Source: Blautia sp.
Lineage (GTDB): Bacteria > Bacillota > Clostridia > Lachnospirales > Lachnospiraceae
Direction of reading: 5' to 3'
Assembly (NCBI GenBank): GCA_051880075.1
Contig: JBJENG010000013.1
Coordinates: forward strand, 7,176 to 71,175
DNA: 64,000 nucleotides
A program made the translations under genes and the position numbers. This document shows positions 1,841 to 13,889 of this stretch, piece by piece; within the stretch, counting starts at the first letter, position 1, and each line of letters begins with the position of its first letter. The notes under the pieces are model-generated. The model was not told the origin of the DNA. It ran no database searches and worked only from the letters and a program-made list of their open reading frames with translations.

Positions 1841-1901
1841 AATGTAAAAATAATGCTTGACAGTAGCGAACGCAAGAGTGCTACGATTACGCCACGATAA
1901 A
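1841..1901 (+). promoter_or_regulatory. Early promoter cassette P1
   Basis: TTGACA(1857)-19 nt-TACGAT(1882) with TG extension, followed by tACGccACGATAAA. Confidence 0.7.
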
Positions 1902-3194: not shown

Positions 3195-3962
3195 ATGGGA
3201 AGATTGAAACATTATCAGAATTGCGATGTAGTCATAGCTCAAGGAGATACTCCAGAATTAGTTGCGGATCAGGAAGACGGAATGGTCCATCAGGAGCTGA
3301 AGAATTGCAACACACATAACGGACTCAAGAAGCAGGACGGAGGAAAACGCTTCCTCACAGACAATGAGATTAAGATTCTTGTCGAGCAGTTTGTGAGAGA
3401 TGATGAAATAATCGCACAGACGTATGAAGAGATTTCAAAAAGAAGGAAAGATAAGAATTTCCAGTACAGCCTTGTGAAGCAGGGAGTTTCAATGACAATA
3501 GTTTCAAGATTTTGTGATATGGGAATTGCAAGACCGAGTGCAATGAAGCTGGCCATGGGAGTTGTCAATATCCTGTATGACCTGTATGTAGCTGAGTGTC
3601 AGGTTAAACAGAGAACAGAAAAGGAAGACGGTTCTCCGGTTGCTGAGATAGATGCTAATTTGGAAACTCCAGAAAACGATGAATCGGGTGAGTTGAAGAA
3701 AGAAGTTGAAGCAGACAACAAAGAAAAAATATCACAGAATATCAGAAAGATTATGGTTTCTCCGAAAAGTATCACATTAGAGAATGCAGTAATCGAAGCC
3801 GGGAAAATCAAGAGTCTCATGGAAATGATGGACAGCTATTATTATGATTATCTGTCTGCAGATGCCAGTGAAAAGATGCAGTCGTTCTACTGTGTGTTCG
3901 ATATCCTGAAGAAACGATATGAAGAATTTGAAGAAGGTTTACAGCACGTTATTTACGGATAA
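3195..3962 (+). CDS. Hypothetical protein
   Basis: Long ORF; RBS gaaagga before ATG 3195. Confidence 0.75.
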   Translation: MGRLKHYQNCDVVIAQGDTPELVADQEDGMVHQELKNCNTHNGLKKQDGGKRFLTDNEIKILVEQFVRDDEIIAQTYEEISKRRKDKNFQYSLVKQGVSMTIVSRFCDMGIARPSAMKLAMGVVNILYDLYVAECQVKQRTEKEDGSPVAEIDANLETPENDESGELKKEVEADNKEKISQNIRKIMVSPKSITLENAVIEAGKIKSLMEMMDSYYYDYLSADASEKMQSFYCVFDILKKRYEEFEEGLQHVIYG

Positions 3963-3992
3963 AAGTGTGGCTGTTATTTTTTTGACCGAAAT

Positions 3993-4071
3993 TGTAAAAA
4001 TATTGCTTGACACAGTACGCAGATGTAGACTACGATAACGTCACAATAAACAATTACAAATCAAATGGAGG
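3993..4071 (+). repeat. 79-bp promoter+RBS cassette P3 (direct repeat copy 1)
   Basis: Identical to 7578-7656 except one base; TTGACA(4007)-18-TACGAT(4031); ends in GGAGG. Confidence 0.95.
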
Positions 4072-4079
4072 AAAAGAAA

Positions 4080-4313
4080 GTGACAGTTAATGGTAGAAGA
4101 AGATTCGTAAGCAACACAGGGAAAAGATACTATGTAAGCAACATGTGCAAGCAGGATATCAAAGGAGAAGAAAAGTACAATCTGGAAGTCGAGAAAGACG
4201 GTAAGCAAAGATTGTGCTACGGTCCATTCCTTGAGCTGCTGAAATTCAAGACCATTAAAGAAGCACAGAGATACGTTCTCTACAACGAAATCACAATCGA
4301 AACAATGTGGTAG
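4080..4313 (+). CDS. Hypothetical early protein
   Basis: GTG start behind cassette RBS (ORF track starts at 4065). Confidence 0.7.
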   Translation: MTVNGRRRFVSNTGKRYYVSNMCKQDIKGEEKYNLEVEKDGKQRLCYGPFLELLKFKTIKEAQRYVLYNEITIETMW

Positions 4314-4326
4314 GAGGAAAGAGATC

Positions 4327-4533
4327 ATGATGAATAGAAGTAAGTCAGCAAAAAGAGAATTTTATTAGGACAGATACAATCCGGATAAGAAATGGGAAGT
4401 AGTAAAGATGGTCGGAGGATATTACCTCAGACAGTATGTGAAAGGTCAGCAGTTTGGAAACGGTCTCCGGACCACAAAGAAGTTCATTGAAAGCATCGGG
4501 ATATTTGACTTTGAAAGAGTTGAGTCGGCATAA
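4327..4533 (+). pseudogene. 68-codon gene interrupted by in-frame TAG
   Basis: RBS aggagg; MMNRSKSAKREFY*DRYNPDKKWEVVKMVGGYYLRQYVKG...; TAG at 4366-4368, frame continues to TAA abutting the next RBS. Confidence 0.7.
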
Positions 4534-4546
4534 GGAGGTGAGAGTG

Positions 4547-4726
4547 ATGGCATACACAAGGAAGACCATAGATGTTTGGGAGATGTATGTTGATTATGGA
4601 TGTGGATAGGAATATGAGCTGTCAGAGTACAGCTTGCAAGAAATCAAGAAGAGAAAGAAAGAGTACAAAGAGAATTGTCCTCAGTACCCGGTAAAAAATG
4701 TTAAGAAAAGAGAAAGGAAAAATTGA
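4547..4726 (+). pseudogene. 59-codon gene interrupted by in-frame TAG
   Basis: RBS aaggaggtg; MAYTRKTIDVWEMYVDYGCG*EYELSEYS...KKRERKN; TAG at 4607-4609. Confidence 0.7.
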
Positions 4727-4728
4727 TT

Positions 4729-5130
4729 ATGGCAACAAGAGAAGAAATGAAAGTTGAAGCATTGGATAGAATGAAAACTCTCAGCATCCAAGAAAATGCA
4801 ATTCGTGAGTTCAAAAATGAAGACAAGTTGAATAAGTCGGAAAAAGGGATCCTGTTTTGGATTTCGGATGAAGAAGAAAAGATGGTAAGAGACTGGGAGA
4901 AGTCTACCGGGAACATTGTTTACCATGCGATTTACAATGTGTTTGAGTTCGGAAGATGTCTGAGCCTGTTGTATGTTAGTGAGTATGATGAGGAATGGGA
5001 ATACGACAGAGAGGATATGAAAGAAGGAATTGCTATTGCACATTGCCTGAATCTTGATAATCCGCAGTGTTCGGAAAGTGGATCAATCGGTGTCAGACCG
5101 TGCTTCGGTGGAGTTGCAAGAATTTGGTAG
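4729..5130 (+). CDS. Hypothetical acidic protein
   Basis: ORF in operon, RBS aaagga. Confidence 0.8.
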   Translation: MATREEMKVEALDRMKTLSIQENAIREFKNEDKLNKSEKGILFWISDEEEKMVRDWEKSTGNIVYHAIYNVFEFGRCLSLLYVSEYDEEWEYDREDMKEGIAIAHCLNLDNPQCSESGSIGVRPCFGGVARIW

Positions 5131-5141
5131 GAGGTTTTCAG

Positions 5142-5603
5142 ATGGAACTGATTAAGTACAAGACAATTATGAAAGAAGAAGGAACAGTTGGGATAGTAAG
5201 AGAAAATGGATATGAAATCGAGTACAGGCAATTGGACAACGCAAGAAAGATAGAAACCGTAATGAAGGAAGCGTTCTCCATTCATAAAGAAACTGAAGAG
5301 TACCTGTACGAGATATGCTTTGATACGAAACTCAAACCGCTTGCAGTATTTGAAGTATCACACGGTACAGTAAATGGAACGATTGTATCGCCAAGAGAGT
5401 TTTTCCAAAAAGCATTGTTAGCTGGTGCGGTTGGAGTTGTAGCTGTTCATAATCATCCGACAGGATGCTGCGAACCGAGCAAACAAGATGACGAGACTGC
5501 TCGTAGCTTAAGAGAAGCCGGGAAACTTATCGGAATCGAACTTCTGGATTTTATGATTATTGGAAATGAAAGCTACAGCTATAGAGAATGCGGAAGATTG
5601 TAA
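5142..5603 (+). CDS. RadC-like JAB domain protein
   Basis: VSHGTVNGTIVSPREFF...HNHPTG...PSKQDD...LLDFMIIG. Confidence 0.9.
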   Translation: MELIKYKTIMKEEGTVGIVRENGYEIEYRQLDNARKIETVMKEAFSIHKETEEYLYEICFDTKLKPLAVFEVSHGTVNGTIVSPREFFQKALLAGAVGVVAVHNHPTGCCEPSKQDDETARSLREAGKLIGIELLDFMIIGNESYSYRECGRL

Positions 5604-5629
5604 AAATTTAGAGACAGGAGGGAAAGCGA

Positions 5630-5800
5630 ATGGCAGATAGAAGCAACCACAAACTGAATGAGGAAATTGAAAGACATATCCGGCAATGGGATGGAACAAT
5701 ACACGGTCAGTGTGTGAAGAATATGTACGAGAACGGAACCAGCTACGAAGGGATCTGTGAATATGCTGGAATCGACTATGAAGATTATGAAGATAGATGA
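5630..5800 (+). CDS. 56-aa acidic protein (not in ORF track)
   Basis: RBS aggaggg; MADRSNHKLNEEIERHIRQWDGTIHGQCVKNMYENGTSYEGICEYAGIDYEDYEDR. Confidence 0.7.
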   Translation: MADRSNHKLNEEIERHIRQWDGTIHGQCVKNMYENGTSYEGICEYAGIDYEDYEDR

Positions 5801-5894
5801 ATGTAAATACGTACAAAGTAGTTTGTGTGAAGAATTTGACATTCTATAGAATGTTGAAGATATAAATAATATTTAAGAATATGGAGGAAAAGAC

Positions 5895-6758
5895 ATGAGA
5901 GAAGAAATTTTAAGAGAATTAGTTGAAGAGGTAATGCAAGTAGCTGGGAAAGAGTATGAGGTTCGTAGTAATCTGGTAAAGAAGAATAACGATGTTGAAC
6001 TCAGGGCAATCATTGTGAGAATGCCGGACGAAGTAATATCTCCAACGATATATGTTGATAAGTACCTTGAAGGCATTGATAACGGACTGATGACAGCAGA
6101 GGAAGCTGCGAAGGAAGTGTTCAGTGTTTACGAGGACAGCAAGAACCAGATTTTAGGAATTGATATATCAAAGATGATGACCAAAGAATACATTCTGAAC
6201 CATGTGGAATATCAGATGGTTAATGCGGAACGTAATGCAGAGAGGATCCAGATAGTGCCTAATAAGAAGATTGCAGACCTTGCAGCACTCTACAGAACGG
6301 TCGTAAGTAATGATGAAAACAGAACAGCCAGTTACATTGTTACAAACGAAGCTATGGTTAATGCCGGTATCAACATCAAAGAACTTGATGAAGCAGCTGA
6401 ACGCAATACAGAAAAGAGTGGGTTTGTAATAGAGACCATTGCTGAAATGATGGGAATTCCGGAAATTAGCGAAGTTCCTCAGATGTTTGTATTGTCAAAT
6501 GCAAGAAAGACTAATGGAGCAAACATCATTCTGTACAAAAAAGAACTAGCAAAGCTTGCACAAAGAATTGGTGGAGACTTCTTCATCTTGCCATCCAGCA
6601 TTCACGAACTGCTTGCTATTCCTGTATCACAGGCTGAGACAGAACAGCTTAGACAGATGGTAAAAGAAGTGAACGATACTGAGGTTGCTCCAGATGAAAT
6701 TCTGGGATACGAAGTGTACCGATACAATAGTGAAACTGGAGAGGTTGAGATAACTTAG
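5895..6758 (+). CDS. DUF5688-family protein
   Basis: VKKNNDV...SPTIYV...MFVLSN...FFILPSSIHELL...MVKEVNDTEV motifs. Confidence 0.8.
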   Translation: MREEILRELVEEVMQVAGKEYEVRSNLVKKNNDVELRAIIVRMPDEVISPTIYVDKYLEGIDNGLMTAEEAAKEVFSVYEDSKNQILGIDISKMMTKEYILNHVEYQMVNAERNAERIQIVPNKKIADLAALYRTVVSNDENRTASYIVTNEAMVNAGINIKELDEAAERNTEKSGFVIETIAEMMGIPEISEVPQMFVLSNARKTNGANIILYKKELAKLAQRIGGDFFILPSSIHELLAIPVSQAETEQLRQMVKEVNDTEVAPDEILGYEVYRYNSETGEVEIT

Positions 6759-6800: not shown

Positions 6801-7199
6801 ATGGAAGAAAAGTTAAGGATGGAGATGGAGATTGTGGTAACCCAAGAAGATATAGATGACATTATGTGTTCGGCTCTGGAAGGTGGAATCAATTACTGGT
6901 GTGATACAGCCAAGGTTCCGGAAGAAAAGAGAGTTGCCAGATGGGGACACGAACAGATAGCCAGAGATGGAGAGCTGCACATGCATCTGATTGAGCCATT
7001 CGATGACGATGATACGGAATGGTATATCTTGACAAAGGAACGGTTTATCGGTGGACTGGAGAAATATCTTAAAGAACCGAATCACGGATGCCTTGAAATG
7101 GACGGAAAGCATTTGGTAATTGACGCAGGAAACATTGATGCAAACGCAGCAGATATGATTGTCCAGTATGCTTTATTCGGAGAGATCGTCTTCGGATAA
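6801..7199 (+). CDS. Hypothetical acidic phage protein
   Basis: RBS ggagg; ALEGGINYWC...DANAADMIVQYALFGEIVFG. Confidence 0.8.
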   Translation: MEEKLRMEMEIVVTQEDIDDIMCSALEGGINYWCDTAKVPEEKRVARWGHEQIARDGELHMHLIEPFDDDDTEWYILTKERFIGGLEKYLKEPNHGCLEMDGKHLVIDAGNIDANAADMIVQYALFGEIVFG

Positions 7200-7212
7200 T
7201 TTTTTTAACAGA

Positions 7213-7232
7213 CAGTAAGCATATGCGTACTG
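7213..7232. promoter_or_regulatory. Palindromic operator-like site upstream of HTH gene
   Basis: CAGTAaGCATATGCgTACTG; reverse complement matches the P3/P4 spacer region at 15/20. Confidence 0.5.
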
Positions 7233-7352
7233 AAGGGAGATTTGAAGCTCTAATTGTTGCAAATACGGTTCAAAAGAAAGAATGGCATATATTTCTTCAG
7301 AACCGATTGCACATAGAAAATAAAAGCCTATATGGCAGAAAGGAGGTAGCGG

Positions 7353-7535
7353 ATGTCATTAAATGAGAATCTTAAAAAGCTGATTGAGGAAAACACCACG
7401 CAGGCAGAACTGGCAAAGAAGATGGGAATTCACAGACAGACTCTGAATGATTCACTCAGGAGAGATATGAGACTTACGAAGTTTGAAAAGATTGTAGATG
7501 CTCTGGGATATAAGGTTGTTTTCGTCAAAAAGTAA
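7353..7535 (+). CDS. Cro/XRE-family helix-turn-helix regulator
   Basis: TTQAELAKKMGIHRQTLNDSLRR; RBS aaaggaggt. Confidence 0.85.
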   Translation: MSLNENLKKLIEENTTQAELAKKMGIHRQTLNDSLRRDMRLTKFEKIVDALGYKVVFVKK

Positions 7536-7536
7536 T

Positions 7537-7568
7537 TTTTTGAGGTACATCCGGCAGTACCTCAAAAA
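7537..7568. terminator. Hairpin after HTH gene
   Basis: tttttgaggtac-atccggca-gtacctcaaaaa. Confidence 0.5.
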
Positions 7569-7577
7569 TGAAAATAA

Positions 7578-7656
7578 TGTAAAAATATTGCTTGACACAG
7601 TACGCAGATGTAGACTACGATAACGTCACGATAAACAATTACAAATCAAATGGAGG
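7578..7656 (+). repeat. 79-bp promoter+RBS cassette P4 (direct repeat copy 2)
   Basis: 78/79 identical to 3993-4071. Confidence 0.95.
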
Positions 7657-7664
7657 TAATCGTG

Positions 7665-7931
7665 ATGAGAAAAGAGTACAGAGAAATCAGAAAAATCAGA
7701 GCAGACAAACTTAGAATCTTATGTATCGAAGAAAACTGGTACACAAGAGGAGATTGCGAAGCATACAATCATCTGCTGTTTGATCTGGCAGGAAACAAAG
7801 AAAATATCACGACAGAAGATATCGTTGAGATTGCTCGGGATATTCTGGAACACAGTGAAACAGACATGGATATTGAAAGCATCTGCTACTACGTTGCAAG
7901 AATTTTAGATACATTCTTCGAAGAAGCATAG
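7665..7931 (+). CDS. Hypothetical acidic early protein
   Basis: ATG behind cassette RBS. Confidence 0.75.
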   Translation: MRKEYREIRKIRADKLRILCIEENWYTRGDCEAYNHLLFDLAGNKENITTEDIVEIARDILEHSETDMDIESICYYVARILDTFFEEA

Positions 7932-7947
7932 AGGAGGTACAGGGGAG

Positions 7948-8403
7948 ATGATGTATTCAGAATTTTTGAAGGGGACCGGAGCACCGGAAAACTCACAGAG
8001 CTATGAGCAGTTTCTGAAAATCGAACAGATTTATATGGACTGTGAGCATATGTCTAAAGAACAGGCATACAGGATTTGGAAGAATACATACGGGAAGGAA
8101 GTAAAAATGGCACGGAAGGCAAGAGAAGAAAGGATTAAGCTGCTTGCCATGCCGGAAGATCAGTACCGGAACCTTCCAGAGCATGACAGAGAGAGTATAG
8201 CGAATGAGCTCCATGAGCTTTTTTGGAACGCTTATTACAACCGGGATGATTCAACATGCAAGATAAGCAAAGACAATAGATGCTTTATCGACAGATTTGG
8301 GATTGTCTGGTTCGTGAAAAGAAGGGATGTCAGATGGTTCCACTACGATCTGTTCGCTTATAACGATGGAAAAGTAATTGATGCAAATTATTGTGAAAGA
8401 TGA
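7948..8403 (+). CDS. Hypothetical protein
   Basis: ORF with RBS, in operon. Confidence 0.75.
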   Translation: MMYSEFLKGTGAPENSQSYEQFLKIEQIYMDCEHMSKEQAYRIWKNTYGKEVKMARKAREERIKLLAMPEDQYRNLPEHDRESIANELHELFWNAYYNRDDSTCKISKDNRCFIDRFGIVWFVKRRDVRWFHYDLFAYNDGKVIDANYCER

Positions 8404-12037: not shown

Positions 12038-12238
12038 GTGGATATAAGAAAATGTCCGTTCTGTGGATGTAAAGACAGAAGAGTCGGAATCAGAAGAATG
12101 GGAAATAAAGGATACAGGGTGGTTTGTGGCAGATGCGGAAGCACTGGTCCACATGTAAGTATTTCTGATTATCAAACGAAAGCAGATGCTCAGGAAAATG
12201 CAATTGAAAGGTGGAATATGAGAGACAATGGAATTTGA
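12038..12238 (+). CDS. Lar-family restriction alleviation-like protein
   Basis: CPFCG...CGRCG...AIERWNMR; GTG after aaggagg. Confidence 0.75.
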   Translation: MDIRKCPFCGCKDRRVGIRRMGNKGYRVVCGRCGSTGPHVSISDYQTKADAQENAIERWNMRDNGI

Positions 12239-12488
12239 AAATTATGAATTAAAGCCATGTCCGTTCTGCGGAGGAACAGCAGATTTTGAAACAAAAGGAA
12301 ATATATCAAACCACACAGAGGTTGGATTTGATTTCGCGATTAAATGTAGTGAATGCGGAATCGAAATTCCGGGAAGGCATAAAGTTACGTTTATACTTGG
12401 AAAGCTTGGACAAATAAGTACAATTATTGACGAAAGGCAGATTGCAATGAACGACTGGAATAGGAGGGCTAAAAATGGATTATCATGA
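12228..12488 (+). CDS. Lar-family restriction alleviation-like protein
   Basis: LKPCPFCGG...CSECG...DWNRR. Confidence 0.8.
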   Translation: MEFENYELKPCPFCGGTADFETKGNISNHTEVGFDFAIKCSECGIEIPGRHKVTFILGKLGQISTIIDERQIAMNDWNRRAKNGLS

Positions 12489-13832: not shown

Positions 13833-13889
13833 ATAAGAAATCCCCGTTCATCTTATGATAGTATCACAGGATGAACGGGGATTTCTTAT
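13833..13889. terminator. Bidirectional terminator at 3' end of aroA
   Basis: 20-bp perfect inverted repeat ataagaaatccccgttcatc / gatgaacggggatttcttat. Confidence 0.8.

Follow-up and report, generated by a model that had tools for sequence, protein, structure and literature searches.

A 60-residue XRE/Cro-type protein and an operator-like palindrome recurring in two duplicated early promoters: a probable feedback circuit in a Blautia prophage

What does a 60-amino-acid XRE/Cro-type HTH protein, encoded at the end of one block of early genes in a Blautia prophage, control, and through which DNA sites? The right end of the prophage occupies bases 1 to ~13,800 of the window (the whole 64,000-nucleotide stretch that we analyzed). 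Its early region is bordered by the end of an endolysin gene at 668 and by the start of aroA at 13,886 on the minus strand, and every convincing gene but one between these borders is oriented rightward. Four kindred promoter cassettes, P1 to P4, lie at 1855, 2605, 4007 and 7592 and have the form TTGAC(A/T)-18/19-TACGAT-nACGnnAC(G/A)ATAAA; the genes that follow them are small and acidic for the most part. The HTH gene (7353..7535, plus strand, with the ribosome-binding site AAAGGAGG at ~7339-7346) is the last gene between P3 and P4, as a first-pass annotation of this DNA had placed it. That annotation proposed that the protein autoregulates and shuts off P3 and P4, in the manner of Aca repressors. 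We put at roughly 60% the probability that the protein is a dimeric repressor feeding back on P3, the promoter of its own operon, and on the duplicated promoter P4, a reading built on the sequence features described here.

The P3 core promoter (4007..4036, plus strand) consists of TTGACA at 4007-4012, an 18-bp spacer and TACGAT at 4031-4036, and the block downstream of it has the HTH gene as its last member. P4 (7592..7621, plus strand; -35 at 7592-7597, -10 at 7616-7621) is a duplicate of P3, the two sitting in an 82-bp repeat whose copies are 98% identical, and it heads the next block, a unit that encodes ParB_N, SSB and DUF551 proteins and a Lar-like restriction-alleviation protein. The element TACGAT-nACGnnACGATAAA is common to all four cassettes. 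P1-type spacers carry short palindromes of their own that are unlike the P3/P4 word (GCGAACGC, TTGCGCGCGCAA and TGTGCACA; window 1861-1879, L018:6214-6232 and L011:1239-1258, where L numbers denote related loci), and P2-type spacers have TGCCnnnGAnnCAGCCTG in common; there may be a separate regulator for each cassette class. In the farther phages G003, G004 and G007 (the IMG/VR records behind L066, L078 and L073), the frame TTGAC...TACGAT...ACGATAA encloses other spacers (GCTTGCGTTTTATCCTGC, GCCAGCGAAATAGCCTGA), and the sole HTH is a distantly related one within a 176-177-aa protein.

Upstream of the HTH gene, the 20-bp word CAGTAAGCATATGCGTACTG at 7213-7232 is self-complementary at 9 of 10 positions, and the word CAGTACGCAGATGTAGACTA occurs at both 4013-4032 and 7598-7617; both were read directly. 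The agreement that had drawn attention to the locus was reproduced, with 15/20 identities when the first word is compared as its reverse complement and 14/20 in the direct orientation. Of 3000 decoy 20-mers taken from the window, none reached 15/20 in the three distinct promoter cores, and of 3000 random palindromes one did. The consensus of the site is an 18-bp palindrome of 8-2-8 form, RGTAnGCA-NN-TGCnTACY, with half-site centers 10 bp apart. The strong operator candidate (7214..7231, unstranded) reads AGTAAGCA-TA-TGCGTACT and is flanked by the upstream gene's stop codon on one side and a leader hairpin on the other, 121 nt before the HTH start codon; it is the top site genome-wide under its own model. 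The operator-like pseudo-palindrome in P3 (4014..4031, unstranded), AGTACGCA-GA-TGTAGACT, has a perfect half-site on the left and a right half that matches 5 of the 7 defined positions. It fills the 18-bp spacer between the -35 and -10 elements, its final T doubling as the first base of TACGAT, and an identical copy lies in the P4 spacer (7599..7616, unstranded). A half-site matrix trained on the upstream palindromes only gives the P3/P4 spacers scores of 13.2-14.9, compared with 5-6.5 for the next site in the 14-kb phage part. The whole genome of 2.34 Mb holds 12 chance sites that score at least 13.2, and the chance that such a site falls in a promoter core or in early-region intergenic space is roughly 1e-3 to 1e-2. 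The match of P3 and P4 to the palindrome is beyond chance. A further sequence, GGGAYGCTTCTGCTTGCC, lies inside a gene of the P4 block (L001:5874-5891, and at the corresponding position in other loci of clade A) with matrix scores of 10-11, ranking fourth in several loci, and is probably conserved coding sequence.

From this geometry we infer that the 60-aa dimer would recognize RGTAnGCA-NN-TGCnTACY as two 8-bp half-sites. Bound to the P3/P4 word it would exclude RNA polymerase, because one good and one degenerate half-site exactly fill the TTGACA/TACGAT spacer, and it is this location between the -35 and -10 elements that implies repression. Since the HTH gene is distal in the P3 transcription unit, repression would amount to negative feedback on its own operon. 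P4, at the head of the next early/accessory block, would also be turned down by the HTH product, and P1 and P2, which have other spacers, would be untouched.

The arrangement recurs in relatives found in IMG/VR and in metagenomes of the human gut; deposited phages yielded no blastn match, and a scan of representative genomes returned nothing above 34-36% identity. One neighboring protein is named after a Coprococcus MAG. Gene order is constant among these relatives (a phrog_2355-like gene, then the HTH gene after a gap of ~150 nt, then a promoter cassette), and the other cargo is shuffled. All four clades at ≥80% identity retain the palindrome, which exists there in 11 distinct versions. Across 23 distinct upstream regions its fixed bases are GTA, GCA, TGC and TAC and its free positions are 1 (A/G), 5 (A/C/T) and the central two, and the bases just after it are hypervariable. 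The P3/P4-type spacers have the same fixed (GTA, GCA) and free (1, 5 and the central two) positions as the palindrome half-sites, and under the matrix they rank second and third both in the phage region of the window and in almost all of ~40 related loci. Among IMG/VR records of the cassette family, the HTH gene is present in 12 of the 13 that have a P3-type spacer and in none of the 6 that have only other spacer classes, a distribution that shared descent confounds. The relatives are all of one phage lineage, and so their conservation is only partly independent evidence.

The same data might be read to mean that the protein binds the perfect palindrome alone, for local self-control by a roadblock or from an unrecognized promoter, with the P3/P4 words too weak to be bound and left as relics of common origin or gene conversion. 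The promoter sites do score far below the palindrome (~12-15, their second half being degenerate, versus 22-27), the genome has chance sites of equal score, and one provirus, G008, retains the promoter word in the absence of the gene. We nevertheless regard this reading as unlikely: the word occupies a constant place in the spacer in all clades, and the positions it preserves are precisely those fixed in the palindrome. It has even improved in one relative (L027), where the P4 spacer is AGTAAGCG-TA-TGCATACT, a near-perfect palindrome shifted toward the consensus, and the one clade that lacks the upstream palindrome retains the P3 site as its top site.

That clade (64-67% identity; L018-20 and L040-44) has neither the T-run nor the palindrome upstream of the HTH gene, and its downstream promoter is a P1-type cassette with the different palindromic spacer TTGCGCGCGCAA. 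Its recognition helix is near-identical (RQSLND for RQTLND), and its P3-type promoter retains the word, which is the best site in those loci; in L040, there is no site inside 4.5 kb. Loss of the palindrome upstream of HTH homologues had been named in the first-pass annotation as an observation that would count against its proposal. What we find is divided, with the palindrome conserved at ≥80% identity and absent from the 64-67% clade.

The 60-aa protein itself matches the Pfam HTH_3 domain at 28.7 bits (cut-off 23), in agreement with its original assignment, and when the early-region ORFs from P1 to the end of the element were scanned with Pfam, it alone had a sequence-specific DNA-binding domain. 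Its family is narrow, with ~20 clusters at ≥80% identity followed by one at 64-67% and one at 48%. A phmmer search against all PDB chains, with E up to 1, returned weak matches to HipB, 434 repressor, Cro and C.BclI; Aca proteins of solved structure were absent from the matches. Likewise, the protein matched no Aca model in NCBIfam, and its score against the NCBIfam HipB model, 22.8 bits, is below the cut-off of 79. No HipA-like or other toxin gene lies beside the HTH gene, the neighbors being the gene for an acidic 132-aa protein and a promoter. When two copies of the protein were predicted together the score was 0.83, versus 0.19 for the best of three controls, a mark that 20 of 30 proteins with a solved structure of two identical chains attain, compared with 1 of 23 whose structure holds a single chain. 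Contact agreement between the homodimer runs was 100%, with a partner pLDDT of at least 92, and the predicted interface comprises residues 38-45 and the C-terminal strand 51-60, leaving the HTH free. The 60-aa protein is thus predicted to be a symmetric dimer; because similar XRE dimers (e.g., HipB) have been solved, this pass may partly reflect those known structures, and it indicates likeness rather than proof. A symmetric dimer of the predicted kind fits a palindrome whose half-site centers are one helical turn apart. The AF2 model of the monomer was of low confidence (pLDDT 68) and was left out of the fold search. Recognition-helix residue 27 (H/N/S) and operator position 1 (A/G) showed zero correlation.

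If the sites are genuine, they could be read by some protein other than the 60-aa one. Under this alternative the main lysogeny repressor or a host protein reads the word, and the 60-aa HTH protein has another target. Its attraction is that P1 to P4 need silencing in lysogeny, and that the TACGAT-containing element of all four cassettes could itself be read by another factor. The provirus G008 (L090:5150-5260, IMGVR_UViG_650377925_000001) manages this silencing without the HTH gene: there, the gene that precedes P3 is joined to a P4-block gene (MMYSEFLKG...) via a single P3/P4-type cassette, so that the whole P3 block, including the HTH gene, is missing and the promoter word is retained. The junction is either the exact product expected of recombination between the two 79-82-bp repeats or a locus that had yet to acquire the block (compare window 3900-4080 and 7578-8000). 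The persistence of the site without the protein means that silencing in lysogeny must rest on something else. Even so, we judge it quite improbable that another factor is the reader of the word. In a complete related phage genome (49.9 kb), the word is confined to the flank of the HTH gene and to P3 and P4, the palindrome and these two promoters ranking as the top three sites. The genome's one further HTH_3 gene, located beside a RusA-like gene among genes of a single orientation, has no site in its vicinity. In the clades at ≥80% identity, the strongest copy is always just upstream of the HTH gene.

The proposal of autoregulation fared unevenly at the level of the HTH gene's own upstream region. 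In its favor are the occurrence of the same motif in the P3/P4 spacers, its retention in relatives and the predicted dimer, but the palindrome overlaps no recognizable promoter of the HTH gene. Both a consensus scan and manual reading found no sigma-70-type promoter at 7200-7352 or beside the strong palindrome. Several candidates were tested by hand, namely TTAACA-17-TACTGA, which spans the palindrome, CATATT/CTAATT, which follows it, TAYATT within the loop of the hairpin, and TTGCAC-16-TATATG; they were rejected for want of a -35 element or of the key -10 bases, or for lack of conservation; a minus-strand candidate within the palindrome, TTCAAA-17-TATGCT, is unconserved in relatives. The palindrome is also not a decayed promoter cassette, as the bases upstream of the site fail to match TTGACA. 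At the end of the upstream gene there is a terminator-like hairpin with a T-run (7173..7206, plus strand; hairpin part 7173-7199). It was rejected as a conserved terminator because the hairpin is confined to the window lineage and clade A, and the T-run tracks the palindrome. A hairpin after the HTH gene (7537-7568) has an A-run behind it on the plus strand and no counterpart in relatives, and it too was discarded as a conserved terminator. With no credible promoter at 7200-7352 and a lineage-specific terminator hairpin, the HTH gene is most simply viewed as distal in the P3 unit, with the palindrome intra-operon. Autoregulation is more likely to operate via P3 than via the strong palindrome. 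We infer that the perfect palindrome, 121 nt upstream, would serve as a high-affinity site inside the operon rather than in a promoter, and that its role would most likely be auxiliary, whether by nucleating cooperative binding or by forming a loop with the weak promoter sites, which lie 385 bp downstream, as a roadblock, or via its transcribed copy.

The last of these options concerns RNA, and here a second element enters. The long imperfect hairpin noted earlier in the leader is present: the inverted repeat folds over 7255..7313 (plus strand) at -17.7 kcal/mol, with z = -4.5 versus shuffles. Its apical motif, GCATATATTTCT at 7285-7296, is near-invariant, and close relatives show compensatory changes at four pairs. 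The arms differ by clade and remain complementary (CGGTTC/GAACCG; CCGGTTCC/GGAACCGG; ATATCCGG/CCGGATAT; AGATTCTGGGGAAA/TTTCTCCGGAATCT). Wholly different though these arms are, the apical word GCATAYATTTCT hardly varies from clade to clade. RNAalifold gave no consensus on the divergent alignment, in which the arms misalign, and per-sequence folds were used instead; in these, L011 folds weakly.

It could be, then, that the palindrome and the leader hairpin act as RNA elements and affect how the transcript is processed, how stable it is or how the HTH gene is translated; the protein may or may not bind them, as in Aca2. Transcripts from P3 probably cover both elements, and the leader pairing is retained with clade-specific arms. 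The outer pairs of the palindrome shift from A-T to G-C to G-T, and Aca1 and Aca2 bind RNA motifs, with intercistronic RNA motifs predicted in acr-aca operons (PMC13551039). We think this unlikely to be the correct account, and the palindrome in particular makes a weak case as an RNA stem. Positions 5/14 of the palindrome are Watson-Crick in none of the clades examined; the Y/R pattern of its flanks is a composition effect, 10 of 12 pairs being expected at ~75%; and the promoter copies precede the start site, which bars them from acting as RNA. For the leader, there is no Rfam family match in the region, the plus strand is the more stable in only 7 of the 18 sequences (G-U pairs favoring it in clades C and D only), and L036 has lost the 5' arm. 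A bolder version, which we consider unlikely, is that a new cis-regulatory RNA module is made up of the leader repeat with its apical word and the transcribed copy of the palindrome, and that the HTH family uses it to control its own translation or transcript processing as well. If that were true, dual binding of DNA and RNA in the style of Aca2 would extend to a second HTH family, unrelated to the first and carried by gut-Firmicutes phages, and the strong intra-operon site would be an RNA operator, not a DNA one.

The remaining cargo of the P3 block (4080..6758, plus strand) consists of small, mostly acidic proteins, with a RadC-like JAB protein at 5142-5603 and a DUF5688 protein at 5895-6758. 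Two short reading frames in this block (window 4338-4726) are each interrupted by a TAG codon. The conserved partner gene upstream of the HTH gene (6801..7199, plus strand) encodes the acidic protein of 132 aa (pI 4.4, phrog_2355). Its AF2 model is confident (pLDDT 92.7), its fold search of the PDB was without a match and its sequence search of the PDB without a meaningful one; its many relatives are uncharacterized and occur in phages of Streptomyces, Burkholderia, Gordonia and Microbacterium. This gene adjoins the HTH gene throughout the lineage. An obligate pairing of the two was rejected, because in a Faecalibaculum-type prophage no HTH gene follows a homologue of 50% identity. In the P4-driven unit, the Lar-like gene at window 12228-12488 encodes an 86-aa protein that matches Pfam Lar_restr_allev past the cut-off (E 8e-11).

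How far the system deserves the name Aca-like can now be stated. The layout of operator and promoter and the HTH protein, predicted to be dimeric, agree with that description, but anti-CRISPR cargo is not recognized and there is no sequence link to solved Aca proteins. In silico, the locus has the Aca traits of a small HTH protein, as a predicted dimer, and of an inverted-repeat operator candidate overlapping P3; phmmer against the PDB, which covers families of solved structure, and NCBIfam linked the protein to no named family of the Aca1 to Aca14 series. Among the P3-block proteins, Pfam, PHROGs and NCBIfam gave no match to a known Acr, and Cas1 was not found in the host assembly (85% complete). 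The term Aca is therefore an analogy of design rather than a demonstrated membership. Some color is lent to a counter-defense role for the P3/P4 cargo by the Lar-like gene and by DarA_C and LPD29 near distant homologues, these two domains having been tied to inter-element conflict (PMC13551039).

By analogy, the closest known case is Aca11 of Streptococcus prophages, which binds inverted repeats in its own promoter and in the similar, probably duplicated, promoter of a downstream operon (PMC12658196). Like the predicted dimer described here, Aca11 is a small dimeric HTH protein of ~60-65 aa at the end of an accessory operon, and its targets, its own and a duplicated-type downstream promoter, parallel those proposed here (PMC12658196). 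The two differ in that no sequence similarity was detected (PDB sequence search, E up to 1), the operator is 18 bp here and 22 bp for Aca11, known Acr cargo is not recognized here, and the present locus has an extra, stronger site that is intra-operon, 121 nt before the gene. Control of several operons has been predicted for most Aca families by Feussner et al., together with RNA motifs between genes (PMC13551039). Aca1 and Aca2 resemble the circuit proposed here in their operon-final autorepressor, inverted-repeat operator in the promoter and structured leader or intergenic elements (PMC6765145, PMC13551039), but they belong to other HTH families, and the structured element here precedes the regulator gene, not the first gene of the operon. 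The Cro-type early repressors of lambda, P22 and 434 offer a further parallel, as small Cro/CI-type HTH dimers that turn down early promoters through palindromes of ~17-18 bp overlapping the polymerase site. Unlike in the lambdoid arrangement, the present locus lacks a divergent CI gene and a tripartite operator, its neighboring genes all share one direction, the HTH gene comes last rather than first, and the site is in only one class of early promoters. Finally, HipB and other XRE antitoxins with a C-terminal strand-swap dimer are the best, albeit weak, sequence matches, and the dimer predicted here also forms via the C-terminal strand, whereas a toxin neighbor is lacking and the score is far under the family cut-off.

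The sites at this locus are real and well conserved, and the proposed circuit is of a known design, the regulatory principle itself having been known previously; the HTH family is new and narrow. If the proposed binding is true, the protein and its palindrome would be a regulator-operator pair for a human-gut prophage family, probably of Coprococcus type, and the P3 and P4 blocks would be a co-regulated early accessory set. The members of this set (small acidic proteins, the RadC-like, DUF5688 and Lar-like proteins, and a widespread phage protein whose confidently modeled fold is unmatched) would then be reasonable counter-defense candidates. The design of the cassettes, in which a common core is combined with a class-specific spacer word, would show one promoter family splitting into separately controlled classes.
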